Below, in pieces: positions 1 through 14,700 of a stretch of DNA of 35,728 nucleotides. Under the pieces are notes generated by a model, which was not told the origin of the DNA, did no database searches, and was given only the letters and a program-made list of their open reading frames with translations. Positions within the stretch are counted from its first letter, which is position 1. Every line of letters begins with the position of its first letter. This stretch comes from a virus (lineage: Duplodnaviria; Caudoviricetes). The stretch spans positions 1 to 35,728 of the IMG/VR virus record IMGVR_UViG_3300031452_000061; one strand, written 5' to 3'. The position numbers and the translations under genes were made by a program.

Positions 1-2
1 AG

Positions 3-377
3 GAAGACGCGGCGTGGGTGAGTAGCCGGCTCGGGACGGCCACGGTGATCGGCAAGAGCGCCAACGCGGGGCGACAGCGCGGCCAGGTGCTCGTCGGTCA
101 GGGCGGCTACGGCAAGGGCGAGATCGGGCGGCCGCTGCTGACGCCCGAGGAGATCCAGCAACTGCCCGAGGGCTGGATGATCCTCAACGGCCTGCACGCG
201 CGGCCCGCCCTGGTGCGCGCGCTCCCGTGGTACAAGCAGCGCGCCTTGCGGCGTCTGGTCGGACGCGCGCAGAGGCGGCAAACCGTGGCCGTGGCTACCG
301 TGGCTACCGCTGCCACGCCGATCTCTATTGACACGCCCCCCGCTGGCGAGCACGTCACCGTCGGCGAATCGGCGTAA
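3..377 (+). CDS. C-terminal part of a VirD4/TraG-like type IV coupling protein (5' truncated by the window)
   Basis: The frame is open from the window edge: EDAAWVSSRLGTATV...GRPLLTPEEIQQLP...PWY. This matches the typical TraG/VirD4 C-terminal pattern (xxxxSxxLGxxT ... RxLLTPxEIxxLP). Confidence 0.7.
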   Translation, partial: EDAAWVSSRLGTATVIGKSANAGRQRGQVLVGQGGYGKGEIGRPLLTPEEIQQLPEGWMILNGLHARPALVRALPWYKQRALRRLVGRAQRRQTVAVATVATAATPISIDTPPAGEHVTVGESA

Positions 378-660
378 CGCCTCTTTCTTTTTCCCAGCAG
401 CACAGTCGTCGCCGGCAGAAGGAAAGCGTACGATTGCTCCACAGACGGTGATGGGGCGGCTTTCCGCGATCGGGAGGTGGCGATCCTCTGCCGCTCTTAT
501 CGGGCGGCTACTCGTTTCTCAGGCGGTACCCGCCTTGCGCAACACCTGCCCTATCGTATCAGCGCCATGGCCGCAACCGCCGACTACTGGGGAAAAGAAT
601 AGAACTGCTACGCACCCCCCGACGCGGCCGCCCGTCGTGCGCCGTCGTGGCACAGGTCGC

Positions 661-688
661 CGCGCGCCCGCGCCCACGGGGAGTCGCC
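661..688 (+). repeat. Outlying degenerate copy of the array repeat
   Basis: CGCGCGCCCGCGCCCACGGGGAGTCGCC matches CTCGCGCCCGCACGCGCGGGGAGCCGCC at 23/28 positions. It is followed by a spacer-like stretch with an imperfect palindrome ATTGGTTAC-ATC-GTTACCAAT (697-717). Confidence 0.6.
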
Positions 689-775
689 GTTACCCTATTG
701 GTTACATCGTTACCAATCCTCGACCAGAAAGCCCACGGTTTTAGCCGTGGGATGAATGGGCGTCCATAGAGCGCG

Positions 776-1171
776 TCAGCGCGTCCGTTGCTCCGCGATG
801 TACCGCTTGATCGTGTCATTCGACACATCGCCGGCCGTCCCGCAATAGTAGCTCCTTGTCCAGAAGCTTGGGAGCCTGAGCAGGTGCGGAAACTCCTGGC
901 GTAGGACGCGCGATGATTGCCCCTTGATGCGGTACATTAGTTGATCCGGCGCGATATTCGGCGGGGCGTTCAGAAAAAGGTGGACATGATCGGGCATCAC
1001 TTCCAGCGCCAGCAGGTGGCACCCTAACGCCTCGACCTGTGCGTCAATCAGCGCCCGCGCACGTTCCCCCACCGCGCCAACAAGGAGCGCTTTGCGGCGC
1101 ACGGGTATCCACACGAAGTGATAGTTGATGAGCGTGACCGATGTCCGCTCCCGTCGATAGCTTGTATCCAT
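776..1171 (-). CDS. tnpA: IS200/IS605 Y1 (HUH) transposase
   Basis: YHFVWIP..RK N-terminal motif, HUH motif MPDHVHL, KG.SSR, FWTRSYY, and the catalytic Tyr in KRYIAEQ. Confidence 0.95.
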   Translation of the reverse strand: MDTSYRRERTSVTLINYHFVWIPVRRKALLVGAVGERARALIDAQVEALGCHLLALEVMPDHVHLFLNAPPNIAPDQLMYRIKGQSSRVLRQEFPHLLRLPSFWTRSYYCGTAGDVSNDTIKRYIAEQRTR

Positions 1172-1299
1172 CAACGACAGTATAGTATACTTAGGAGGAT
1201 AGCGCCGGATGTTCCGGGTCGCTGTTCCCCCGGATGTTCCGGGCTTCCCTAGCGTGGATAGCGGTATGAGGTGATCCGCTATCTGGAGACCGGCAACGG

Positions 1300-1498
1300 T
1301 CCTTCCCCGTCGTGCTTCAGAGGGGCATCGTTGTAATGGCGATGTTCGTTCGATGGGGAGCGGTGCATGGCACTCCGCTTGTCCTGGTCAAAAGGACAAC
1401 TGACACGCTCGAAAGGGCGGGCCAGCAGCTCCATGAATACCCACATCAGGTGGGGGCTACATGCGAGAATCCCACTCCTTTAGGGGTGGGAGTGTCAA
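1300..1498 (+). ncRNA. Probable remnant of the tnpB 3' end / omega (re)RNA scaffold
   Basis: Occupies the position between the divergent tnpA promoter region and the right-end hairpin, where TnpB reRNA scaffolds are encoded. No RuvC or Zn-finger TnpB coding sequence remains. The 5' boundary is a guess. Confidence 0.4.
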
Positions 1499-1515
1499 CA
1501 ATAGACCTCGTAGAC

Positions 1516-1916
1516 CTCGCGCCCGCACGCGCGGGGAGCCGCCGAGCAGGAGGAAAAAAAAGGTGTGAGTCACACCCTCGCGCCCGCACGCGCGGGGAGC
1601 CGCCCAAAACGGTTCTTGTTACGAACCGTTTTAAGGCCTCGCGCCCGCACGCGCGGGGAGCCACTCTCAAAAACAGCGGTTACATTGTCACTACTGTTCT
1701 CGCGCCCGCACGCGCGGGGAGCCGCCCCGTGAAACAACATGTTATTAATATTAATAATCCTCGCGCCCGCACGCGCGGGAAGCCGCCGTTGCCAGATAGT
1801 GAATTAATTCACTATCTGGCACTCGCGCCCGCACGCGCGGGGAGCCACTGTTGCCAGGTGATGAATTAATTCATCACCTGGCCTCGCGCCCGCACGCGCG
1901 GGTGCGGGGAGCCGCC
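1516..1916 (+). CRISPR. Orphan CRISPR-like array with type I-E geometry: 7 repeats and 6 palindromic spacers
   Basis: Repeat CTCGCGCCCGCACGCGCGGGGAGCC(GCC/ACT) starts at 1516, 1577, 1638, 1699, 1760, 1822 and 1883 (period 61, once 62). Spacers are 33-34 nt. Internal stem CCCGC-ACGC-GCGGG. The last repeat has a 6-nt insertion. No cas genes in the window. Orientation is inferred from the I-E-like stem plus 3' handle. Confidence 0.85.
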
Positions 1917-2056
1917 ACTAGCGATGCATGCCCCCGATAAACGGTCTACCCGCACGTCCCATGTGGCATGCTAAAGGTGCGGGCGGTCTGCGGTGTGTTT
2001 TGGAGCTACTCACCGTGGGCCGCTCGCCCTACGTGGCCCCGCGCGGAGCCGGCCGC

Positions 2057-2257
2057 TTAGGGTGTGCTGTCTCGGTGTTCGGCCTGCTGCCAACGGTCAC
2101 ACCGCTCACGCCAGGTCGCCTCGTGAGTGTTTGCGATGAACTTAGCCATGGGGGCGTTGTTACCCTCACTGACAACGTAGCCGCGTAAGTCATCATACAC
2201 AGCCCACTTTTGCGAGAAACGATGAGGGCGCGCGACAAAGCGTAGGCGAGGCGTCAT
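2057..2257 (-). CDS. Small hypothetical protein
   Basis: 66-aa ORF whose start overlaps the stop of the upstream HTH gene (ATGA coupling at 2254-2257). Confidence 0.5.
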   Translation of the reverse strand: MTPRLRFVARPHRFSQKWAVYDDLRGYVVSEGNNAPMAKFIANTHEATWRERCDRWQQAEHRDSTP

Positions 2258-2808
2258 AGTCCTCTAAACAACCTGAGCCACCACGGCACCTGTCGCCTGG
2301 CCCGGCGCAGTTCCGCCGCCTCCTGCTCGGCGACCTCGGCACGGTGGCGCTCACGGCCTAGCTCTTCGCGCACTGCGCCTAACTCACGCTGTGTCCGGTC
2401 GAGGTGGTCGACCAACGGGGCGACAAGCTGCTCCACGATGGTCTGCACGGCGGCAGACTGGACGCTCGTGTCTGCCAGGCTTGCCAGGCTTGCCCCGCGT
2501 ACTAGGCGTGCCTGGCTGTCTAGCGTGCTTGGCTGTCCAGTGTTGGCGGTGTCACTGTCGAGGGCATCACGCCGGCCCATCCACTCATCGAGCGTGGCCA
2601 AGCTGATGCGGTACTCGGAGCCACGCGGACCTTTGACGCGCCAGGATGGCAAATGACCGGGATGACCGCCACGCGCTTTCAAGGCACGCCTGATCGTGCG
2701 ATCGGACACGCCGGCGTGCGCCGCGGCCTCATCGACGGCCAGGCCGGCGTCGTTAGACACACCAGCGCCGGCGTGTCCAGTGTCTAGGTTGTCTAGGTTG
2801 TCCATCAT
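2254..2808 (-). CDS. HTH (excisionase/MerR-like) plus coiled-coil protein, possible single-protein partition factor
   Basis: LAVDEAAAHAGVSDRTIRRALK HTH, then GSEYRI, a C-terminal coiled coil (RELGAVREELGRERHRAEVAEQEAAELRR) and a PWWLRLF tail. Start moved to the MMDN ATG at 2808. Confidence 0.7.
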   Translation of the reverse strand: MMDNLDNLDTGHAGAGVSNDAGLAVDEAAAHAGVSDRTIRRALKARGGHPGHLPSWRVKGPRGSEYRISLATLDEWMGRRDALDSDTANTGQPSTLDSQARLVRGASLASLADTSVQSAAVQTIVEQLVAPLVDHLDRTQRELGAVREELGRERHRAEVAEQEAAELRRARRQVPWWLRLFRGL

Positions 2809-2872
2809 CGCCGCTAGTGTACCACGCCCTAACATCACGAGGGACGCGCATGGTAGCTGGAGCCTTAACCGG

Positions 2873-3136
2873 CTACAGACCCGCGTCAATACCCTCCAGG
2901 CGAAGCGGGCGGCAGGTGACACAGATGGGCTCGGTCGTCATCGCACCCGTCGTCTGTATGGATGCGTGCAAGGGTGTGCGGCGGGTCCGGCGTGAGAAGA
3001 GCATGCCGGGCGCGATAGGTCGGCCGCACACGCTGCACGCAAGCTCCGCGACGGCGCGGTAGGCGGTCGTGACGACGCCGGTATCCAGTGTCGCGCGCCC
3101 GACCTGATGACTCTTCACAGGGACCCTCACCATCAC
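2873..3136 (-). CDS. Small Zn-finger-like hypothetical protein
   Basis: CSVC...CVTC pairs; SD-like GGAGGGG upstream on the minus strand. Confidence 0.5.
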   Translation of the reverse strand: MMVRVPVKSHQVGRATLDTGVVTTAYRAVAELACSVCGRPIAPGMLFSRRTRRTPLHASIQTTGAMTTEPICVTCRPLRLEGIDAGL

Positions 3137-3178
3137 CTACCCCCTCCTACAACGAGTCTAGCACGTCCTCAACGCGAC

Positions 3179-3206
3179 GGGCCGTTCGCGTGATGCGAAC
3201 GGCCCT
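3179..3206. terminator. Intergenic hairpin
   Basis: GGGCCGTTCGC-GTGAT-GCGAACGGCCC, an 11-bp stem just downstream of the 3234-3947 gene. Confidence 0.45.
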
Positions 3207-3233
3207 GAGATACGCATGGGACAACGGGCAAGG

Positions 3234-3947
3234 CTAGCTTGCCGGGGCGACGGTCTCGTGGAGCACGCCGGTCGTGTCCTGTGCCGTCTGTTGCTCTTTA
3301 GCCCACGCCGCTGGGCTGTACCCCTCCCCGGCCTGCGCGCGTGGGATCAGCACGTCACGCTCGTACGAGGCCATGGCCTCGGTGAGATCTGTGATCGTAT
3401 GCGCCACGCTGGCGGCCCGCTGGTAATTGCCCAGCGTATCATCGGTGCCGTCGATATACCCGTTTAGAACACCCGAGAGTGCGACAAGCACGCGCTCCAC
3501 GCTATCAAACGGCAGGTCGAGCAGCGGGGCGGCGTCGAGCGCCGCGCTTGTCTCCGTGGTGTCTCTGTGGGGTGCCACCTTCCCCCGATGCGCGGCGAAG
3601 GCTTTCAGGAGATACGCCGTTGCCTCCAGGGGCAACTTAAGCTCCTTATAGCCGTCATACACGTCGGCCGTCTCGATGGCCCACACGGGATGCTCACCAA
3701 TCACGCGGCGCAAGATAGTCACGGCAGCGCGCAGGACCGCACGCTCGACCGAAACCACATCGGTGCACACGATCCCCGGCTCCAACCTCGACTCCCATTT
3801 ATAGTGCATAGGGCGCTGTGGGCGCAGCGGCGCATGAGGCGCGGTCAAGTCGGGGTTATCATCCTCGGCGAGGTCAGCCACCACTTGCGCGGTGTCTTGC
3901 GCTAGCACGAAGTTGGGTGTCAGTTGTGCGGTATGTGTCGTACTCAT
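3234..3947 (-). CDS. Hypothetical protein
   Basis: 237-aa ORF with natural composition and a GGAGG SD upstream; part of the leftward gene run. Confidence 0.7.
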   Translation of the reverse strand: MSTTHTAQLTPNFVLAQDTAQVVADLAEDDNPDLTAPHAPLRPQRPMHYKWESRLEPGIVCTDVVSVERAVLRAAVTILRRVIGEHPVWAIETADVYDGYKELKLPLEATAYLLKAFAAHRGKVAPHRDTTETSAALDAAPLLDLPFDSVERVLVALSGVLNGYIDGTDDTLGNYQRAASVAHTITDLTEAMASYERDVLIPRAQAGEGYSPAAWAKEQQTAQDTTGVLHETVAPAS

Positions 3948-4079
3948 GGTCGTGAAAACTCCTCCAGTGAATCATTGGTGCTGTAAGCGGGGCATGCATG
4001 CGGTGACGCGGGGCTTCATGGATTGTGAGGGGAGGGCGGCCCGCGTGCCCACGGCGCACGCCTGTACGTGGTGAGGCTC

Positions 4080-5084
4080 TCACGCATGCCCCACCTCTCC
4101 CACGCGCCCTATGCTCTCGTGCCCGCCCTCGGCCAGGACGCCCATCAGGTGCTGCGTCGCGCGCATCCACGCGCCCTCGTCCCCCGCGCCGATCTGTTGC
4201 CAGCGCGTGGCCCCTAACGCGTCGTGGCCGTCCTCACGCTCGATCACGTAGGGGCGCGTCCCTCTACCGTCCTCATCATCATCGTTAGAGGAGGTTGGGG
4301 CGCTCTCGCGTAACTGGACGATGCGGTAGCGCGCGTCCTGCCAGGCGAGGCGAGGCAGTGAGGGGTGTAGGGCTAGCGGTTCGGGCGCCGCTGCGGGTGT
4401 GGTGATGGTGGCCGTTGCCGGCGTGATCCGGTTGGGCACGGTCCGCACACCCTTCCTGGTCGCTGTTGTCCGTGGCGACGCGGCCTTGCCCCTCGTCTTA
4501 CCCGTAGCCTTACGCGTGGAGGTCGCCGCGCGGCGTGTGCCCTTGCGTGACGTGGCGCGCGGGCGCTCCTGCGCCTCGACGAGCGCACGCAGGAGGTCTG
4601 GGTCAACGGTCAGGGCCTCAGCTAGGCGCGGCGCCATAAAAGGCGACGGGCGACGCGCGTCCTCCTCATACGCTTTGACGACGCCAGACTGGATACCGAG
4701 CGCGTTCCCCAGTTGCGTGCGGGTTAAGCCTTTCTCCTCACGCGCCGCCACAAGGTATGCACCGAGCGTCGTGACGGTAGGGTCTGGGTCGTCAGATACA
4801 ACGGCGGGGCCTGAGTCATCAAGTACGTCGGACAGGCGACGCGACACCGGCCTGGTCGCTCGCGGTCGCCGCTCCACCTTGGGAGAGAGATCGGGAGCGG
4901 TGGCGTCCCATGACGCGCCTCTCTCTTCGTCGGGGGCAACGAGACGCGCCGCCGCGGCGGGGTCTGCGCGGTACAAGTCGATGGTCGCGTCCCGCGCGGC
5001 GGTGGGGGTGAGCTCGCCGGCCACCATGCGCCGGTTGACTTCGGCGCGTGACATCGGCGGCACGGTCGGCGTGCTGGTGTTCAT
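4080..5084 (-). CDS. XRE-family HTH protein with a basic, histone-like low-complexity segment
   Basis: LGAYLVAAREEKGLTRTQLGNALGIQSGVVKAYEEDARRPS...LAEALTV is an HTH_3 pattern, followed by an R/K/A/T-rich tract. Confidence 0.75.
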   Translation of the reverse strand: MNTSTPTVPPMSRAEVNRRMVAGELTPTAARDATIDLYRADPAAAARLVAPDEERGASWDATAPDLSPKVERRPRATRPVSRRLSDVLDDSGPAVVSDDPDPTVTTLGAYLVAAREEKGLTRTQLGNALGIQSGVVKAYEEDARRPSPFMAPRLAEALTVDPDLLRALVEAQERPRATSRKGTRRAATSTRKATGKTRGKAASPRTTATRKGVRTVPNRITPATATITTPAAAPEPLALHPSLPRLAWQDARYRIVQLRESAPTSSNDDDEDGRGTRPYVIEREDGHDALGATRWQQIGAGDEGAWMRATQHLMGVLAEGGHESIGRVGEVGHA

Positions 5085-5120
5085 GATGCGCTCCTACCCG
5101 CTGTGCGGGCTATCAGGCGA

Positions 5121-5543
5121 TCAAAGGTACCCATGATGCGCGCTCCGTCCGGCGCCGTCGTCCATCTCATCGCAGCCCGTGAGTTCCGCGAGGAAGGCGC
5201 GGCATGGGTCGCCATAGGCCGTGTCCACGTCCGCGAGTACCGCTTCTTCCAGCCGCGTCGTGAGCTGCCGCGTCGCAATCCGCAGCCGATACTGCGCGCC
5301 CAAATCGGCGCCGTCGTCTTTTAGCGGGTCGAGCGTGAGCACGAGAACTTGCAGAACCTCAATCGCCTGATACAACACATCGGCCTCAACGTGGATCGGG
5401 TTGCCGCTGGTAGGGCTGTCATGCACATGAGGGATCAAAACCTCAATCGTGTCCCGGCTGCGGCGGATGCCGCTCTCCCATGGGCGCTCTTTTGGGGCCG
5501 ACGTGCGTGTGCTGTTTGTAGCGTGGTCGGTGTGGTCAGTCAT
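5121..5543 (-). CDS. Hypothetical protein
   Basis: 140-aa ORF with an AGGAG SD, in the leftward operon. Confidence 0.6.
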   Translation of the reverse strand: MTDHTDHATNSTRTSAPKERPWESGIRRSRDTIEVLIPHVHDSPTSGNPIHVEADVLYQAIEVLQVLVLTLDPLKDDGADLGAQYRLRIATRQLTTRLEEAVLADVDTAYGDPCRAFLAELTGCDEMDDGAGRSAHHGYL

Positions 5544-5546
5544 AAC

Positions 5547-5751
5547 TCATACTCCTTGCTGGGTCGTGTGCGTGACGAGGCGCTGAAAGATAGCGTCAAT
5601 ACGTGTCTCCTGGGCTGGTGTCGCGACGGACGCCCACGCGATGAGGCGTCCGTTATGGGTCATGTAGGCGATGTCGTCGTAGACATAGCGCATCCAGGAC
5701 GGCGTGTAGGGCGCCGAGGGTGCCGGTGGCGCTAGCTGTGGGGTGGTCATT
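5547..5751 (-). CDS. Small hypothetical protein (start approximate)
   Basis: Fills the operon gap between adjacent minus-strand genes (MTTPQLAPP...). Confidence 0.45.
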
Positions 5752-5956
5752 GGCGTAGGCTCCCGGCGACCGTCCTGGCATTCCAACGGTCAGCAAAAGT
5801 ATTCCAGGCGGCGCATTCCTCTATCGCAGCTTGGTTATTGGGAAGAAACCGGCCCTCGCCGGCATAGCGATAGGTAGGGCGCTCGGCGGCGATCTCGGCG
5901 GCCGCCCCCGCATCACAGGATGCGGAGGCCATGGTGATAGCTGGTGTGCTGCGCAT
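5747..5956 (-). CDS. Small hypothetical protein
   Basis: Tightly packed between the SWIM gene and the next ORF. Confidence 0.45.
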   Translation of the reverse strand: MRSTPAITMASASCDAGAAAEIAAERPTYRYAGEGRFLPNNQAAIEECAAWNTFADRWNARTVAGSLRQ

Positions 5957-5959
5957 CGT

Positions 5960-6454
5960 CTACGCTACCCGCATTAACGCGTAGTGCAAGGCCGCCACTT
6001 CACGCTCCAAGCCGTCCACCTGGCACCACAGGACCGCATAGCTATCGTCGCGCGCGTCGGCGTCGTGCAGCGCCCGACGCGCGTGGGTGAGCCTGGCCTC
6101 GGCGGCGTCGGTCTCGGCGTCGAGGGTGGCGACGACGGGAGGCGTGGTCATGACGGGCCGCACGATGCCACTGGGGGCACCGGCCGTCATGGGCACGACC
6201 ACCGGGGCCTCGGCCTCCTTCTTGACGAAGAAGGCCACGTTCAACGCCCGGACGTACCGCTGATGTTTACAAGGCTTCCGCGCGGGACACGAACACGAGT
6301 TAGCTGAGGTCTCGTAGTAGACGCTGGGGTTAGATCCCGATTGAACGCGGTACCAGCCCCGGTGCGCTGTGAGCTTCACGGACGGCTTGTAAGTGCTGGC
6401 CGCCGTCGCGCGTTTGGCCGTAGACTGGGAGCTGGGTATGGGGTGGTTCTGCAT
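5960..6454 (-). CDS. SWIM zinc-finger protein
   Basis: WYRVQSGSNPSVYYE...CSCPARKPCKH fits the SWIM CxC...CxH motif; first gene of the leftward operon, with SD AGGAG. Confidence 0.75.
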   Translation of the reverse strand: MQNHPIPSSQSTAKRATAASTYKPSVKLTAHRGWYRVQSGSNPSVYYETSANSCSCPARKPCKHQRYVRALNVAFFVKKEAEAPVVVPMTAGAPSGIVRPVMTTPPVVATLDAETDAAEARLTHARRALHDADARDDSYAVLWCQVDGLEREVAALHYALMRVA

Positions 6455-6475
6455 GGCTCTTCTCCTGTACCTACC

Positions 6476-6650
6476 GCCCGGTGATCGTGTGAACGACGAT
6501 CACCGGGCATTTGTATTTATGGGAGCTATCTGCTCCCTACCCCTGTAGTATAGCATCCCGTAGAGTCTGTGTCAATCTATTACATTGTTTAAGATGGTGG
6601 ATAGTGGTACAGTATGGGTGGATAGCACGTAGTAGACTAAGGAGGTATGC
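6476..6650. promoter_or_regulatory. Divergent control region with inverted repeats
   Basis: AT-richer gap between divergent gene runs. 13-bp IR GCCCGGTGATCGT..ACGATCACCGGGC (6476-6508) and GGGAGC..GCTCCC. The minus strand has TTGACA (6570-6575) and a TATACT-like -10 near 6547-6552. Confidence 0.55.
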
Positions 6651-6653
6651 AGA

Positions 6654-6863
6654 ATGAATGCAGTGGGAGTGTTAGAGATGCCCATAGATGACAAGACATG
6701 GCAGGTCACGGTCCGGCTACCCCGTGACCTGGAGCCCGCCGTGAAAGAAGTAGCGCGCCAGCGGCTAGTGCCGCCAACGATCGCGCTACGGCAACTCATT
6801 AAAGAGCGGCTCGACCAGCTCGCGGCGGACTCGCGGCGACAGGAGCGCGAGGGGGAGCGATGA
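6654..6863 (+). CDS. Ribbon-helix-helix (CopG/Arc-like) regulator
   Basis: QVTVRLPRDLEPAVKEVARQRLVPPTIALRQLIKERL has an RHH pattern; SD AAGGAGG. Confidence 0.7.
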   Translation: MNAVGVLEMPIDDKTWQVTVRLPRDLEPAVKEVARQRLVPPTIALRQLIKERLDQLAADSRRQEREGER

Positions 6864-6904
6864 CTACTGACGAAAGGGGGATGGCGAAAGCCTCCTAGTG
6901 GGAG

Positions 6905-7408
6905 TTGGTTGAGCACACAGACACTAGAGCACTCTACGTTCTGGTGCGGACAGGCGGCAAAATCACCTCCGTATGTGATCTCAACTTGCTCGCCGAGGGC
7001 GTTGTACGTGACGAGCACGATGCTGTCCGTGAGGATTGGACACGCTACGTCTATTATTTGAGCAAGGCACAGGCGCCATGGGCACGCAACCAACCATGGC
7101 GCACACTAGATCGCGCCCGGAGACCCGCACGCTTTACCCCGCCACGGCTAGCCTTCCGTGCGCCACGGGAGGGGATGGTTCCCCTCTCTCGCCTGATATG
7201 TCACTACTGCGGCCAGACCTCACTGGAAGGATTAATCGACTCAGAGGGGTGGGTCTACTTTCCTGTGTCCTGCCGAGCATGTGGTCACCAATGGGACGAC
7301 ACGATACCCTACTCGGAGAGGTTTCTGAGAGCGCTAACGAGAGCTTCCAAAAAACGCCGAGCCGCTGCCCGAGGCAAGGGACACCATCAAAGCGAGGCGG
7401 GTCAGTGA
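6905..7408 (+). CDS. Hypothetical Zn-ribbon protein
   Basis: CHYC...CRAC pairs; start uncertain. Confidence 0.5.
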   Translation: MVEHTDTRALYVLVRTGGKITSVCDLNLLAEGVVRDEHDAVREDWTRYVYYLSKAQAPWARNQPWRTLDRARRPARFTPPRLAFRAPREGMVPLSRLICHYCGQTSLEGLIDSEGWVYFPVSCRACGHQWDDTIPYSERFLRALTRASKKRRAAARGKGHHQSEAGQ

Positions 7409-7620
7409 ACGGGCAAGGCGGTTTCATTGACGATCGCGACGCCTATACGCCAGCCGAACCCGCCATCGGCGACGACTTCCCGTGCGCGACCTGCGGCGAG
7501 CGCCCACCGCGACCAGGGCGGGTGCGCGGCCAGGAGTGCCTCGACGCCGAATGGTTGCGCCTGCGCGCCAAGGACCCGGCGTGGTACGAGTGCCACAAGG
7601 ATTATCACCGGCACGGCTAG
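7405..7620 (+). CDS. Small hypothetical protein
   Basis: GTGA overlap with the upstream stop; CATC..C motif. Confidence 0.4.
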   Translation: MNGQGGFIDDRDAYTPAEPAIGDDFPCATCGERPPRPGRVRGQECLDAEWLRLRAKDPAWYECHKDYHRHG

Positions 7621-7655
7621 GGCGTCTGTCTGTTGAGGGAATGTGATGAAACGAT

Positions 7656-7925
7656 ATGACGGGTAAGTGGGAGCGCAAGAGTCCGGCTCTGTGGACGTAT
7701 CGGCTCGTGGGCGCCACGCGACCATATGGGTATGTCGGGAAATACAAGGGGTCCGGGCGCTCCGACGCCGACTGGGACGCGACGGTCACAGCACACCACC
7801 TTGACGACGATGTGACCATCGCCGAGGGCGTATCGTTCGATGACGCCAGGGCGGCGCTGGAGCAGCACGCCCAGCAGCATGCCGACCCGGTGGACGGAGC
7901 GGGAGATAGGGGCACAGGTCTATGA
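7656..7925 (+). CDS. Hypothetical protein
   Basis: 89-aa ORF coupled (ATGA) to the next gene. Confidence 0.55.
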   Translation: MTGKWERKSPALWTYRLVGATRPYGYVGKYKGSGRSDADWDATVTAHHLDDDVTIAEGVSFDDARAALEQHAQQHADPVDGAGDRGTGL

Positions 7926-8188
7926 ACGCGGCGTCCTTGATCCGCTGGATTGAGCGCTCACCGTACCTCCACGAGGCGCGTGTGACAACCGCCGCCGGCG
8001 CGGACCTATACGTCGGCTACGTCGCCGTCACGCCGGACGCCGCTGTGTGGCGCGGCTATGTTGGCCGGGGGTTCGTCCTGCTCGGGATCGGGCCGTGCGC
8101 GGTGATGGAGCGCGCCGTCGAGCAACGGGTCGCGGAGCTTCTGCAAGGCGACGACACGGCGACTAAAGGTTGTTTAGACACGAAGTGA
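7922..8188 (+). CDS. Hypothetical protein
   Basis: 88-aa ORF, translationally coupled to the previous gene. Confidence 0.55.
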   Translation: MNAASLIRWIERSPYLHEARVTTAAGADLYVGYVAVTPDAAVWRGYVGRGFVLLGIGPCAVMERAVEQRVAELLQGDDTATKGCLDTK

Positions 8189-8248
8189 CAAGGAAGGGGG
8201 GAGATTAGTTATGAGAATGTTTGTTCTCACAGAAAACACGAGGGATGT

Positions 8249-8782
8249 ATGGTCACGAAAACGGAAGTGACTTCCGAAAGTAGCCACCGCACGGGTCGGC
8301 CCACACGGTTCAGCGATGACACGATGAACGTCCTAGCCGGCCTGTATCCCCATGTGCATAGTCGGCGTGGACTCGTAGACATCGCCTATCGCCAGCGCGC
8401 GATCGGGGTTCTCAAGGACATCCCTGCATGTCACTGGTTATGCGACTTTACGGCTATGAAGCAAGGCGGCGAGAACTCCTGGCAACCCGGTATTCTGACG
8501 GAACTGGGGCGCATTGACGACCTTGACACCCTGATCGCCGCCGCTATACAGGTATGTGAGCGTCAGCCGTCGCGTGAGGACGCGATACACCTGATACGTC
8601 GGTACCGGACCACGCCGCGTCCTCCTCTACCCGATCAGCTAGCCACCGAGATACTGGGCGCCATCAACGGCTTTATCCGGCGTTATCCGGGGACCACCTG
8701 GCCCGCGGTCCACGACGCCCTGGACCTCGCACAAGTCGCCGTACGTGGCGCACAACAGGACGTTGAGGATCGCCAGCCCTAG
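8249..8782 (+). CDS. Hypothetical protein directly upstream of the recombinase
   Basis: 177-aa ORF, SD GAGGG, 11 nt from the recombinase start. Confidence 0.65.
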   Translation: MVTKTEVTSESSHRTGRPTRFSDDTMNVLAGLYPHVHSRRGLVDIAYRQRAIGVLKDIPACHWLCDFTAMKQGGENSWQPGILTELGRIDDLDTLIAAAIQVCERQPSREDAIHLIRRYRTTPRPPLPDQLATEILGAINGFIRRYPGTTWPAVHDALDLAQVAVRGAQQDVEDRQP

Positions 8783-8793
8783 AGGGGGGAGTC

Positions 8794-9798
8794 ATGACCA
8801 CGACATCGACCACCATCAGCGACACCGTAGACGAGGGCTATCCTGGCGCGCGCGTGGTCGCCGCGGCGGTCGTCGCGCCGCTGGACCAACGTCCCGCCGC
8901 TGTCTATCTGGCGCGGTTGGCCGTGGGCGCGCGCCGCTCCCAGCTCGGCGCGCTGCGCACCATGGCCCACCTCCTGGCCGGCGCGGACGCCGACCCCTTC
9001 ATCCTGCCCTGGCAGCAGTTGGGCTATCAGCACACCCAGGCGCTGCGCACGCAGCTTGCCGCGCGGTATGCACCGGCCACCTGCAACCGCATGCTGGCGG
9101 CCCTACGTGGCGTGCTGATGGAGTGCTGGCGCTTGGGCCTGATGGACGCCGAGGCGCGGGCGCGAGCGTCCGATGTGGCGGCGGTGCGCGGGACCACGAT
9201 CCCACGCGGTCGCGCGCTCAAGGGCGGCGAGCTGCGCGCCCTCTTCGCCGTCTGCTCTGATGGGAGCGCGGCAGGGGCGCGGGACGCGGCTCTCCTGGCG
9301 ACGCTCTACGCTGGTGGCTTGCGTCGCTCCGAGGCCGTCGCGCTCGACCTCGCCGACTACGACCCGACCTATAGCGCCGACGCGAGCGCGCTGACGATCC
9401 GACATGGCAAGGGGCATAAGGAACGCGTCGTCTACGTCCAGAACGGGGCGCGCACGGCCATGGGCGACTGGCTGGCGATCCGGGGTGACGAGCTGGGGCC
9501 GCTCTTCCTGCGGCTGCGCAAGGGCGGCGTGCTCGTACCAACCCGCTTGACCGACCAGGCCGTACTGGACATTCTCCAGCGGCGCTGCGTGCAGGCCGGG
9601 GTGAAGGCGTGCTCACCACACGACTTACGGCGCACGATGATTAGCGACTTGCTCGACGCCGGCGCGGACATCTCGACCGTGCAGAAGCTGGCCGGCCACA
9701 GCAACGTCACCACCACCCAGCGCTATGACCGCCGCGGCGAGGCCGTCAAAGCGAAGGCGGCCGGATTGCTGCATGTGCCCTATGGTAGGCAGGGGTAA
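8794..9798 (+). CDS. Tyrosine recombinase (XerC/D-like integrase/resolvase)
   Basis: RDAALLATLYAGGLRRSE (catalytic R), GKGHKER (K), PHDLRR (HxxR), LAGHSNVTTTQRY (H, Y). Confidence 0.95.
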   Translation: MTTTSTTISDTVDEGYPGARVVAAAVVAPLDQRPAAVYLARLAVGARRSQLGALRTMAHLLAGADADPFILPWQQLGYQHTQALRTQLAARYAPATCNRMLAALRGVLMECWRLGLMDAEARARASDVAAVRGTTIPRGRALKGGELRALFAVCSDGSAAGARDAALLATLYAGGLRRSEAVALDLADYDPTYSADASALTIRHGKGHKERVVYVQNGARTAMGDWLAIRGDELGPLFLRLRKGGVLVPTRLTDQAVLDILQRRCVQAGVKACSPHDLRRTMISDLLDAGADISTVQKLAGHSNVTTTQRYDRRGEAVKAKAAGLLHVPYGRQG

Positions 9799-9857
9799 CG
9801 GGAGTGGCTATGTGCATCTTGGCGTAAGGCCACATCTAGGGGCCGGTGCTGCATATA

Positions 9858-10547
9858 ATGGATGCAGCACCGCACCACATAAACAAGACCCTGTACAGAA
9901 CAAAGGCCGTAGTAATTGAAATGCTAGAGCGTGACTATATCTTCCTGAGTGCACAGCAGTTTGCCGAGTGTACAGGTGACATTGCGGCTCCTTGCCCACG
10001 GTGTGCGTCGCTCGCCCGCATGGATGCTCCTAAAGAGACCAAGGGCGTTATTGCCGGAAAGATGACGCGCGTCAGATACATCGTGTGTGGGAAGTGCGGA
10101 TTACGGCTTTGTCTCCCTGGTACAGAGGATCTCGGAAACGACGATCACAAAGAGCACGCCCGTCGCGCCCGTCATTTCGAGAGGACGTTTGATACACGAA
10201 CCCATGTGGAAAAGCAACGCGTCAAGAAGGCTATTGAAACGCGCATCCGTCAGTGGATGGCTGATAATGATCTTGCGCCTACAGTCGATGGGATAACAGG
10301 CGTAGACCTGCGCTCCTTACGACATGAGGCGCTAGCCAAGATGTACTACGGAGCCACAGAGGACCTGGAACTCGTAGAACCCGAGATACGAACGGTCGGC
10401 GACGTTAGGCGTAAACTGGACAGTATCCTGGAACGTATAGTCACGAGTTCCCCTGCGTTTATCGAACAAGATGAGATCGCCGCCCGCTCCTGGACCACCA
10501 TCACGCGCGACGGAGTCGCCGCCCCGATGGCTATTGACAGCAATTAA
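9858..10547 (+). CDS. Hypothetical Zn-ribbon protein (lower GC)
   Basis: CPRC...CGKC pairs; start uncertain (9846 or 9858). Confidence 0.6.
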   Translation: MDAAPHHINKTLYRTKAVVIEMLERDYIFLSAQQFAECTGDIAAPCPRCASLARMDAPKETKGVIAGKMTRVRYIVCGKCGLRLCLPGTEDLGNDDHKEHARRARHFERTFDTRTHVEKQRVKKAIETRIRQWMADNDLAPTVDGITGVDLRSLRHEALAKMYYGATEDLELVEPEIRTVGDVRRKLDSILERIVTSSPAFIEQDEIAARSWTTITRDGVAAPMAIDSN

Positions 10548-10727
10548 CCCATTCGTATATACTTACAATAGTACATTAATAGATTGGGGCGAGCGCGGCA
10601 ATTATACCGTGCCCCCGCCGGCACCGAGTGGGATAGGCTAGCCGAAGCCCTTGGAGATGCCCACCACCATGATCCCCTAGGACACTGTGTCCTTTTTGGG
10701 GCTTTTTTCATGAGCAAGGGCACCCAC

Positions 10728-10761
10728 CACCGCCAAACGGTCACGTTATGGCGGTTTTTTT
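10728..10761 (+). terminator. Rho-independent terminator
   Basis: ACCGCCA...TGGCGGT stem followed by a T run. Confidence 0.5.
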
Positions 10762-10792
10762 GTGCCCGGATTCGCTTGCAGGAGCATCCGAG

Positions 10793-11011
10793 ATGAGAGA
10801 CAAAGCCGAACGACGCGGCCGACCCGTCACGCCGCTACCTAAGCGCAGTCATGGCTTGCACATCCCCGTCACCGAACAGCACTTTGAGATGCTCCGACGT
10901 GAGGCTGAGGCGGCCGGCTACTTCGACCTAGCGCCCTACATCCGCGAGGTCAAGCTACAAGAGCCTCCACTGATCTGGGTGCGCTCAACAGGAGGCTCGA
11001 CCGCCGCATAG
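10793..11011 (+). CDS. RHH/MobC-like small DNA-binding protein
   Basis: RGRP..KRSHGLHIPVTEQHFEMLRREAEAAGYFDLAPYIRE; SD AGGAG. Confidence 0.65.
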   Translation: MRDKAERRGRPVTPLPKRSHGLHIPVTEQHFEMLRREAEAAGYFDLAPYIREVKLQEPPLIWVRSTGGSTAA

Positions 11012-11056
11012 TCAGCAGTAGCCAACACGAACATTCTCCCCCGTTTTCTAACGCAC

Positions 11057-11087
11057 AACCGCCGTCCAATTGGACGGCGGTTTTTTG
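11057..11087 (+). terminator. Perfect palindrome / terminator
   Basis: AACCGCCGTCCAATTGGACGGCGGTT (26-bp palindrome) running into a T tract. Confidence 0.6.
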
Positions 11088-11324
11088 TTGCCCTTCGGCA
11101 CGCCTTTTGTGAGGAGTCCCCATGGATACCGACATTGTTCAACAGTTGATTGACCTGACTGACGGTAGCTATTACGTTCCCGACGATGCCCTCTCGCCTC
11201 TTGCACGAGAGATTCTGCGCGAATTCGTCACCCCCATTGTCGGCCATTATGGTCGTGTGGTGTGGCCCATTGGAGACCTCACAACCGACCTGTAACGACG
11301 ATGCGAGGGCAGAGCACTTCCCCA

Positions 11325-11372
11325 GACGCACTAAGGGCCTGTGGCTGCTTACAGGCCCTTAGTGCGTCTTTT
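11325..11372 (+). terminator. Long hairpin / terminator upstream of the replicase operon promoter
   Basis: AGACGCACTAAGGGCCTGT-GGCTGCTT-ACAGGCCCTTAGTGCGTCT, a 19-bp perfect stem followed by T residues. Confidence 0.65.
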
Positions 11373-11398
11373 CTAGCCAGGCCACCGATTACTGTCTA

Positions 11399-11435
11399 TT
11401 GACCCTGTACGTGTTTATCACATATAATACACGTA
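11399..11435 (+). promoter_or_regulatory. Sigma70-type promoter for a leaderless transcript, with overlapping operator
   Basis: TTGACC (11399-11404), 18 nt, TATAAT (11423-11428), then ATG 6 nt later. The inverted repeat TACGTGT...ACACGTA brackets the -10. Confidence 0.7.
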
Positions 11436-11617
11436 TGAAGAAAAACGCCACGTTCAGTCTAAGCGAGGAGGCGATACGCCTGCTTGCTGTGCTCGCCGCG
11501 AATAGGGGTATTAGTCGGACGGCCGTTCTAGAGTTGCTGATCAGGGAAGCGACGCGCAAAGAGGAGAAAGATCGTCGCGCGGCGGTAGAGATGACGCCGG
11601 TAGAGATGACCCGATAA
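11435..11617 (+). CDS. CopG-like RHH repressor
   Basis: MKKNATFSLSEEAIRLLAVLAANRGISRTAVLELLIRE is a classic RHH. Confidence 0.8.
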   Translation: MKKNATFSLSEEAIRLLAVLAANRGISRTAVLELLIREATRKEEKDRRAAVEMTPVEMTR

Positions 11618-11778
11618 GCAAAGGCGTCACCTGCTCGCGACCATCACACCGCGACCACATGACGCCTAAAACGTGTCAGGGAGTTGAGCCCCTGACGTAG
11701 CCCAACGAAGAGGACGATTATGGCAATCTTCGCCAGACCTGTATCCATTTTACCACAACACCGCAAGGGCGGCGCCTT

Positions 11779-14700
11779 ATGGTAGCGCAGACACTCTCTG
11801 CCCTTGAAGTAGCGCGCGCCACCAAGACCCGCGGCTACCCCCCATTGCCCGTCGCTTTTAAAGGTAAAAATCCATTGCCCACGGGGTGGCCAACGCTTGT
11901 CCTCGACGACGATGACCTACCCGCGCACTTCCCCGAAAATGAACGACCGCTCAATGTTGGCGGATTGCTGGGTGAGTTAGCGGGCGGCCGCGTCGATGTA
12001 GACATCGACGCACGCGAAGCGTGGAGCATCGCCGCCCAGTTTCTCCCCCCGACGGAGGCCGTATTTGGACGGCGCAGCTGCCCACGGTCACATTACGAAT
12101 TTGTCGTCACCAGCGGGCCGATCCCGCGTATTGTAGAGTACCTGGACCCCCTGCTTGAAAAGGGAGATGCGCGCGTCAAGTTAGTCGAGATTCGTGGCAC
12201 CGCACACCACACCGTCATGCCCGGATCGATCCATAGTTCGGGCGAAGAAGTCTGTTGGAACCAGGACGGAGAACCAGGCGCGGTCGATGCCCCGGATCTT
12301 GAACAACGCGCGGCCACGCTCGCCTCTGCCACACTGTTAGCACGCTACTGGCCAACGGGTGCGCGGCATGATACGGCTTTGGCGTTGGCTGGGGCGCTCC
12401 TGCGCAACGGCTGGACTCCTGAGCGGGCCGAACAATTCATCGTCGCCGTCGCCTCGGCCGCTGGCGACACCGATGAGCGCGACCGGCGCACGGCCGTGCA
12501 AACCACCGCCACGAGGCTCACAGCCGGTGAGACCGTGTTCGGTATCCCGCGTCTTAAAGAGTTGCTCGATGCACGGGTGGTTGATCGCGTCGTCGCGTGG
12601 TTACACCTTGTTGAGGTGGCCAAACCACGCACCGCGACCCCAGGCGCGGTGCGACCGCCGACGAGGGCGGATGCCCCAGGGGCTGTACCGGAGGTTGGAC
12701 GATTCCACCTCACAGACCTCGGCAATTCAGAGCGCCTGGTAGCGCAACACGGGGAACGCCTGCGTTATTGCTACGCGTGGAATAAATGGCTGGTTTATGA
12801 CGAAGGCTACTGGCGCGCTGATCGTCCCGGCTTGGTCGTCGCGTTGGCCAAAGAAACCGTCCGCTCAATCTACAAAGAGGCGGCCGACGAGCCCGATGAC
12901 AAGGTGCGTGCCGCTATAGCCTCCTGGGCTAAGGCGTCTGAATCACATAGCCGTATTGGCGCCATGGTCGCGCTGAGTCAGTCCGCGCTTCCCATCGACC
13001 ACACCGAGTTCGACCGCGACCCCTGGCTACTCAATTGCCGCAACGGGACGCTCGATCTCAATCGCGGCATCTTGCGACCGCATGACCCCGCGGACTGGCT
13101 GACTAAGCAGGTGCCGCTGGCGTACGACCCTGACGCCCAGGCTCCCATGTGGCGCGCGTTCCTGCATTCCATCATGGGCGAGGACGACGACCTCGTCGCC
13201 TTCCTGAAACGTGCGGCGGGGTATTGCCTCTCGGGCAGCACGCGCGAACAGTGCCTATTCTTTATGCACGGCAGCGGCAGCAACGGCAAGAGCACATTCC
13301 TCCTGACGCTGCAATCCGTATTAGGCCCGTACGCCATGCAAGCCAAAAGTGATCTGCTCATGGCCAAGGCCCACCAGGACCACCCGACCGAGGTCGCGGA
13401 CCTGTTCGGCGCGCGCCTGGTCGTCTCTATTGAGGTGGAAGACGGGAAACGCTTTTCTGAGTCGATGCTCAAGCAGCTGACCGGCGGTGATAAGATACGC
13501 GCCCGCCGTATGCGCGAGGACCACTGGGAGTTCGACCCGACCCACAAGATTATGCTCGCAGCCAACCATCGCCCCGCTGTACGCGGGACCGATCACGCCG
13601 TGTGGCGCCGCATCCATCTCATCCCGTTTACGACGACGATCCCGGAGGAACAGAAGGATGTGAACCTGCCCGAGAAGTTGAGGGCCGAGGCGCAGGGCAT
13701 CTTGACATGGATGGTCGAGGGGGGTGCCGAGTACATGCGCGCCGGCCTGCGCGTTCCGGGGGCAGTGCGGGCGGCGACCGCGGGCTATCGCGAGCAGATG
13801 GACCTCATCGGCCAGTTTCTGAACGATCGTTGCGACGTCGGCCCCACCCTCAAGGACACGACCGCCAACCTGTACCGCGCATATTGCGCCTACTGCGAGG
13901 ATAACGGCGAGAAAAGCGTGTTAAGCAACCGGCGGTATAGCGATGCGCTGACCGAGCGGGGTTTCGCGTTAGTGCGCGGCACGGGCGGGGTGCACCTGCG
14001 GAAAGGGCTGCGATTACGCCCCGACGTGCCACCGGACGATGGGTGGTTTGACGATGGGGCAGCTGGGTTTACCCCCTCACCACCCTCCGCCCCACCCTTT
14101 AGTGACGTAAGTGACGTGAGTGACGTTAAATCTACTATAAACGGGGATTTAATTTCTCACGAGGGTGTTATACCGAAAATAACGTCACTCACGTCACTTA
14201 CGTCACTATCAGCCAAGGAGTGGGTCCACGATACCGAAAACCATCCTAACGATGAAGGGGGCGCTGTTAACCTCGTTAACCTCGTTAACCTCGTTAACCT
14301 TTCCGTACCCAACCCACGCGGGCGCGCAGGTGCACACACACACGCACGCACACAAGATGAGTGTGAAAAGGTTAAGGAGGTTAAGGAGGTTAATCCAGAA
14401 GAGGTCGTGGGCGGGGCTGGCAAGGAGTCGTTACGTCCGTGCCCCGGCTGCGGGACACCAACCCTTCACGGCTGGACGTGTCGGGGGTGTCGCCTCGGGC
14501 AGCCGCCCGCGACGGCGGTTGTAGAGTCGGCAGACCGGCCGGTGGAGCCGTCAGACGCGCCTAGCGCCATCCCCGCCGCCGTGGTGCGCGACGAGGGGCC
14601 AGCGGCGCCCTACACGATGCTGACGACGGCCCGCGACGTTGAGGACATGCTGACGAGCGTGCGCGCCGCGCCAATCGTCGGCCTGGACACGGAAACGACG

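Follow-up and report, generated by a model that had tools for sequence, protein, structure and literature searches.

A cas-less mini-array of largely palindromic spacers on a conjugative phage-plasmid

The stretch of DNA analyzed here (the window) is an entire contig of 35,728 bp, and the carrier is a 35.7-kb conjugative phage-plasmid. Pfam searches of its 38 ORFs found the end of a coupling protein, an IS200 transposase, two HTH proteins, a tyrosine integrase, a primase-helicase-polymerase A fusion, NlpC/P60, a split terminase, VirB4, and VirB6. The 1,520-aa fusion (11779-16341) joins Prim-Pol, a D5-type helicase, a 3'-5' exonuclease, and polymerase A; among plasmid records, none reached 80% coverage of it, and in sister elements the replication modules are exchanged for others. 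A palindrome of 11+7+11 right behind the integrase gene (9844-9872) is a candidate recombination site. No cas gene was found among the 38 ORFs by Pfam or among 30 by PADLOC, in a contig that is possibly short by a few kb, nor by Pfam among ORFs of sister elements (117 of the 129 listed, plus 17 others). ParA and ParB are likewise absent among the window ORFs scanned with Pfam; the sister G001 has both. Rfam gave no matches in positions 1-12000.

The left end of the window holds a short CRISPR array and its neighbors (Table 1). The array directly follows the coupling protein gene, as it does in the sister loci L001 and L005, and full-length homologues of this protein in sister loci match PF02534. 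On the other side lies an excisionase-type HTH gene with 40 homologues; in three viral relatives no array adjoins it. This gene contains an internal repeated motif, different in each element, in the window as in L001 (5518-6084), L005 (5117-5800), and L006 (4263-4970). The right flank is found in many related contigs of the sequencing runs, at high depth, and could be a transfer origin or another cis site. The IS200/IS605-type element that interrupts the array has no tnpB-sized ORF.

Table 1. Features at the left end of the window.
Feature	Position	Strand	Remarks
Type IV coupling protein gene, 3' end (VirD4/TraG-like)	3..377	+	PF12696, E 4.7e-4, below curated cut-off
Conserved left flank, candidate leader	590..660		By-eye alignment of window, L001, L005, L007, L021
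Orphan degenerate repeat R0, separated from array by IS	661..688		85% to reference repeat
Spacer S0, imperfect palindrome	689..718		Palindrome score 6.5
IS200/IS605-type element between S0 and R1 (ends approximate)	724..1498	-	Terminal hairpins read from sequence
tnpA of IS200/IS605-type element	776-1174	-	PF01797, E 1.8e-35
Mini CRISPR array	1516..1916		7 repeats of 28 nt, 6 spacers, period 61-62
Spacer S1, palindrome 7+1+7	1544..1576		Core matches L007 and L024 palindromes
Spacer S2, palindrome 10+7+10	1605..1637		Exact protospacer in L007
Spacer S3, imperfect palindrome	1666..1698		Common to window, L001, L005, L007
Spacer S4, contains 16-bp loop-less palindrome	1727..1759		Donor not found
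Spacer S5, 34 nt, 32-bp perfect palindrome	1788..1821		Palindrome 1790-1821
Repeat R6, between S5 and S6	1822..1849
Spacer S6, 33 nt, 30-bp perfect palindrome	1850..1882		Identical copy in L001
Conserved right flank	1917..2100		Present too in elements without array
Excisionase-type HTH gene, array neighbor	2254..2922	-	PF12728, E 4.9e-6

Canonical type I-E arrays have a 29-nt hairpin repeat and a 32-nt spacer. The repeats here are hairpins of 28-29 nt with a fixed period of 61 (R7 carries a 6-nt insertion), and the geometry of 28+33, equal to 29+32, fits that type; 17 of 22 distinct spacers in the array family are 33 nt long. A look-alike repeat adjoins an annotated type I-E cas operon on a Rhodococcus plasmid (L034), and it aligns with the plus strand of the window repeat. 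Cues to array orientation conflict, repeat anatomy pointing to the plus strand and the left flank and an excess of G at the right-hand ends of the spacers to the minus strand. The junction between flank and R0 is the same as in sister arrays, and the left flank is a candidate leader. A leader on the right side was considered and not upheld, repeat anatomy favoring the plus strand and left flank; three 9/12 matches in a promoter scan were uninformative. The exact repeat occurs in no viral record, and a relaxed pattern gave one new array there, the same record that a search with the left flank returns. The species-genome collection yielded a single lone repeat match, outside any array; the whole array, used as a query against plasmids and phages, gave weak repeat-level matches only.

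The initial annotation had described S5 and S6 as perfect palindromes with three mirrored differences, and this holds. The arms are 16+16 in S5 and 15+15 in S6 (1853-1882), in both cases without a loop, and over 33 nt the two spacers differ at positions 9, 11, and 12 and at their exact mirrors 28, 26, and 25. The expected number of loop-less palindromes with arms of at least 15 in the window is 1e-4, and the chance of six substitutions forming three complementary mirrored pairs is 3e-5. A mis-assembled duplication, which would have undercut the observation, was looked for in the runs and rejected: contig pieces without differences span S4-R5-S5 and S5-R6-S6, no strand-switch joint was seen among the pieces, and S6 with its flanks lies unchanged within one contig piece in all four runs (X1, X2, X4, X5), which are all labelled rock metagenome and possibly derive from one campaign, the best perhaps being the source sample itself. 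Among the runs listed as containing the sequence there is no RNA run. The full 36-bp consensus given in the initial annotation is present in the relatives L006 and L010 but not in the window, because there the next repeat truncates the right arms; the right end of the site is supplied by flipped copies in L005 and L006.

A metagenome scan for the S5/S6 pattern returned seven loci, comprising the window's own contig, five sister arrays, and one chance match. This last locus, L002, is an unmirrored match in an AT-rich gene and was discarded as a family member. The full pattern gave no matches in the viral collection, where the relaxed one gave a single match (the fold of G001, below), and none in the species genomes. 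Ten further copies of the 36-bp site were found in sister elements, and the resulting 12 members at seven loci align without gaps in a single register, which agrees with the proposal that variants of one site family were captured in identical register. They occur in both orientations and in lengths of 30, 33, 34, and 36 nt, and two of them (in L005 and L006) are flipped copies of one 33-bp piece. The symmetry itself had been proposed to be selected or copied from arm to arm, and a covariation analysis was suggested. Across the 12 members, pairing holds in 98.4% of cells, and at four pairs both sides change; none of 500 shuffles reached the pairing, changed-cell, or covariation values, but 48 of 500 reached the pair count, and G-T was counted as paired and kinship inflates the result. 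Nine of the 12 are perfect palindromes. The other three have unmirrored differences, the kind of homologue named as counter-evidence at the outset, and to this extent strict selection for symmetry is weakened. Changes are confined to five of 18 arm positions, the three outermost well-covered pairs and four of the five central pairs being invariant.

The outer end of the S5/S6 palindrome is a 5-mer that is repeated 17-19 times in the HTH genes of L001, L005, and L006, and only 1-5 times in those of four other elements. Post hoc, S5/S6 may thus be a candidate dyad site of a variant of the adjacent HTH protein. Two blocks of 9-10 nt are also in common between S5/S6 and a mini-array spacer near a coupling-protein gene on a Streptomyces plasmid (L033:7020-7051); this resemblance is likely due to chance, since it was found by searching with that query (E 0.2).

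Long loop-less palindromes with AT-rich centers are typical of N15-type protelomerase target sites, and the initial annotation had raised this possibility for S5 and S6. G001, a record of 26,008 bp classified under inverted terminal repeats, consists of two arms that are complementary to each other along 9,949 bp or more, and its center coincides exactly with a member of the S5/S6 family, after parA-parB (L010:5017/5018). The family could on this basis represent hairpin-telomere junctions of linear elements (left-left, right-right, and left-right) or telomere sites in place, and the co-occurrence of perfect and hybrid forms would be consistent with either. However, the G001 copy follows a diverged repeat in array register, at the syntenic position of the array; the variant at the center of G001 is an ordinary spacer in L007; and other spacers originate in gene interiors. 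No telomere resolvase or protelomerase was matched among the 38 window ORFs and 17 and 117 sister ORFs, from records that are fragments, and the runs contain no fold-back joints. Because of the repeat in array register and the plain-spacer copy in L007, an assembly fold-back is the simpler explanation, and G001 is probably one. With that repeat, and with no protelomerase found, a telomere origin of the family is improbable, and little beyond the fold itself speaks for a protelomerase target.

Ordinarily, the spacers of CRISPR arrays sample the DNA of invaders almost at random. At six loci of this array family, 19 of 22 distinct spacers score at least 7 for palindromy, as do 2.4% of 12,048 33-mers from the same elements and 2.7% of the AT-rich ones among them. 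Spacer GC is at most 0.48 in all 22, with 8.8% of the background at or below 0.5. In a seventh array, the two spacers likewise reach 7 or more. Counted once per family, and with S0 added, 11 of 13 spacer families are palindromic, and the two misses score 5.5 and 6.5. As a control, just one of 34 spacers is palindromic in three plasmid arrays with look-alike repeats, whose boundaries are approximate and which are GC-richer than the arrays studied. The dyad center falls within the spacer in every scored family. Two overlapping windows of another site, offset by 9 nt, are both present as spacers, and therefore indicate repeated independent capture. The palindromes on which the initial annotation focused are thus real, but the bias extends well past S5 and S6 to nearly all spacers of the family. 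Cas-less mini-arrays as such are known; searches of open-access full texts for palindromic-spacer or decoy arrays gave no paper describing them, nor a bias toward palindromes this close to complete and leading back to a single gene segment. Dyads in 11 of 13 families imply either an unrecognized strong bias in capture or a different use of arrays.

The donors of several spacers lie in sister elements. S2 is identical over 33/33 positions to L007:6026-6058, which is outside any array and within a gene of a family marked by the motif YLTARIARD; the site encodes a variable segment immediately upstream of this conserved motif. The minus-strand peptide of S3 equals 11/11 residues of the variable segment in protein P0274, and its DNA matches L012:12165-12197 at 26/33. 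For S0, the minus-strand peptide matches the variable segments of P0323 and P0276 at 8/10, and the S1 core matches L007:5862-5880 at 16/17 and L024:6050-6064 at 14/15, both palindromes. Two spacers of L007 match variable segments at 26/33 and 25/33, and one partly matches L007's own site (25/33). Judged by these matches, at least two spacers are traced firmly, and four more tentatively, to one segment of this gene family. The donor gene is absent from the window, and S0-S3 are therefore non-self. Flanks could be deduced for three donors (one from DNA, one from protein codons, one from flipped copies), and they have no common PAM on either strand.

The variable segments are palindromic in all seven donor-family copies in the fetched sister DNA, and homologues of the donor sites differ through mirrored changes. 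Copies of the gene carrying the hypervariable in-frame palindrome include L007:5853-6058, L025:10440-11054, L012:11901-12622, and L024:5795-6562; the genes are frequently truncated, or consist of tandem modules with differing palindromes. The family, with 617 hits, is an uncharacterized and widespread mobile-element protein family with a hypervariable palindrome in its own gene, which is likely an identity tag among competing elements. The donor protein has no match in Pfam, PHROG, PDB sequences, or the phage collection, and no named match in the Atlas. Two confident models are all-helical and match no solved fold, and a wide structural search, covering the protein apart from its C-terminal domain, gave uncharacterized phage proteins only. 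As it resembles nothing named or solved, binding of the protein to its own palindrome is putative.

No donor was found for S4, for S5/S6, or for four sister spacer families. For S5/S6, no protospacer was present in the viral, genome, and metagenome collections or in contigs of the four runs; the best matches were 19-22 of 30-36 positions in 332 kb of sister DNA and, for their peptides, 6 of 10-11 aa among 327 fetched proteins. The nearest natural relative is a 12-bp core within a 26-bp palindrome at L017:8829-8854, and this core is common to several S5/S6 variants. Perfect loop-less palindromes of 26-42 bp occur outside arrays at that position and at L001:7398-7433, L021:5452-5477, L005:4318-4347, and L022:11572-11613. 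The early suggestion of an operator-like site thus agrees with the mapping of other spacers to in-gene palindromes of sister elements; no such origin was traced for S5/S6 themselves.

Without a donor, S5 and S6 could also be paralogues, descended from one ancestral palindromic spacer that was duplicated and diversified in the arrays through recombination between repeats and template switching at hairpins, the mirroring being a mutational by-product. Template-switch correction of quasi-palindromes is a known process, according to the available part of PMC3820800. A single mirrored pair separates the window S5 from the spacer at the corresponding position in L001, which is likewise 34 nt long and has the same repeat end, so that mirrored change may also follow capture; hybrid forms adjoin their parent types in L006 and L007, and repeat variants and spacer order are reshuffled between arrays. 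Such a history would leave unexplained the palindromy of 10 of the 12 other families and the donors of S2 and S3, as well as the restriction of changes to so few arm positions, with outer and most central pairs invariant, and it is at odds with the repeated capture seen in the 9-nt-shifted windows. As the whole explanation it is improbable.

We tentatively prefer to read the array as one for competition between elements, directed at dyad control sites: S5 and S6 would be two host-captured variants of a 36-bp control site belonging to sister elements, and would serve, together with host Cas proteins, to keep relatives out. Host Cas1-Cas2 would capture two natural variants of the one palindromic site, in trans, and the array on its cas-less carrier would then act with host Cas proteins, RNA-guided, against sister elements. 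The bias toward dyad DNA could arise at capture, from hairpins or cruciforms or from protein-protected sites, or alternatively by selection, since such segments tell sister elements apart. The mirrored changes would result from copying between arms together with the constraints of symmetric binding, for the most part in the donors and perhaps in the array as well. Hairpin-biased capture has not, to our knowledge, been described for type I-E. For other systems, the portions available describe virus-borne mini-arrays acting against relatives via host Cas (PMC6858448, PMC11656645) and, in type III-A, hairpin-biased capture independent of PAM and orientation (PMC8860593). As in mini-arrays, the spacers are unique and of constant length, no cas gene was found on the mobile element, and, apart from S4-S6 with no donors, they match relatives and not the carrier. 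Of the marks of type I-E, the repeat and spacer geometry is present, but a common PAM (over three deduced flanks) and a fixed spacer orientation (two of 12 family members being flipped) are not.

Several observations count against use as guides. The computed folds of the S5 and S6 RNAs have energies of about -22 kcal/mol and pair about 80% of the bases, which would make them poor guides. Palindromic spacers also have a near-perfect twin on the other strand of the array (32/34 and 31/33), a self-target risk for whichever orientation keeps the seed intact; for a plus-strand guide, the window twins mismatch near the 5' end, unlike the flipped copies of L005 and L006. In addition, the three deduced flanks have no common PAM, flipped, 30-nt, and 36-nt copies are retained, and the IS lies between S1-S6 and the likelier leader.

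The hairpin-locked RNAs, the other-strand twins, and the lack of a common PAM therefore favor the main rival, an action of the array at the level of DNA. It would be a CRISPR-built, updatable library of the dyad sites of others, titrating regulators or borrowing partition proteins with no need for guide RNA, the carrier being stabilized and the rival element destabilized. This would explain why the dyad center lies inside the spacer in every scored family, and why orientation, length, and PAM appear irrelevant, and it agrees with the IS having cut the array off from its conserved left flank. It would also suit a carrier with neither ParA nor ParB among its scanned ORFs and a sister with both, and, post hoc, the match of the S5/S6 outer ends to the motif in the adjacent HTH genes. 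ParB relatives (P0065-P0097) carry two to three copies of a lineage-specific short linker peptide, as expected of in-gene centromere sites. These linker repeats are likely in-gene parS palindromes, the DNA having been seen only for L011:12645-12662. Precedent exists in the parS mimics of SGI1, in the part of PMC10954446 available. On the other side, the repeats retain a hairpin suited to processing, their period is fixed, none of the spacers matched a ParB site, and the donor protein, with no Pfam, PHROG, or solved-fold match, is a DNA-binding protein only putatively. Matches to a site of another element exist for S2, S3, and, in part, other spacers, but not for S5/S6. A DNA-level role is on balance unlikely, though the most probable of the rivals.

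The strong spacer hairpins and intact repeat stems would also suit an RNA anti-CRISPR, the transcript soaking up host Cas6/Cas7 with hairpin-locked spacers that do not guide. Repeat-unit inhibitors of this kind are reviewed in the accessible parts of PMC11656645 and PMC10651486. Such a role gives no reason for exact spacer matches to a specific gene segment of sister elements, and is the least probable of the readings considered.

Among known systems, the preferred competition array is perhaps best compared with the mini-arrays of the viruses SPV1 and SPV2. As far as the available text of PMC6858448 and the review PMC11656645 goes, these are likewise short, cas-less, and on a mobile element, with spacers that match same-habitat relatives rather than the carrier, and palindromic spacers are not described there. 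The arrays here differ in having up to seven spacers, nearly all palindromes from one gene segment, and in retaining flipped and near-duplicate variants. With type I-E arrays such as that of the Rhodococcus plasmid they share the 61-bp period and a GC hairpin repeat with a 4-nt loop, but they lack a cas operon and, over three flanks, a common PAM, and 11 of 13 families are palindromic versus 1 of 34 control spacers. Type III-A acquisition also prefers structure-forming DNA, with uptake independent of PAM and orientation (PMC8860593, in the part available); unlike it, the present arrays have a ruler of mostly 33 nt and an I-E-like repeat, and the near-total bias is seen in natural, retained arrays. 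The type IV-A and V-M systems in plasmid competition resemble them in that conjugative elements target relatives with spacers acquired in trans, according to the available sections of PMC11656645, but no effector genes were found on the element here. Protelomerase targets are similar in the long, loop-less, AT-centered palindrome and in the one fold-back contig beside parAB; here, however, no protelomerase was found, and the motif was seen only in array context. Promoter-repressing RNAs derived from repeats (10.1101/2024.10.29.618823) are another relative, but with short partial matches. The closest parallel to a DNA-level role is SGI1, which hijacks the IncC ParABS with parS mimics and so, like the array in that reading, carries copies of a rival's dyad site; in the portion of PMC10954446 available there are two fixed mimics without CRISPR repeats and with demonstrated binding, which is putative for the palindromes here.
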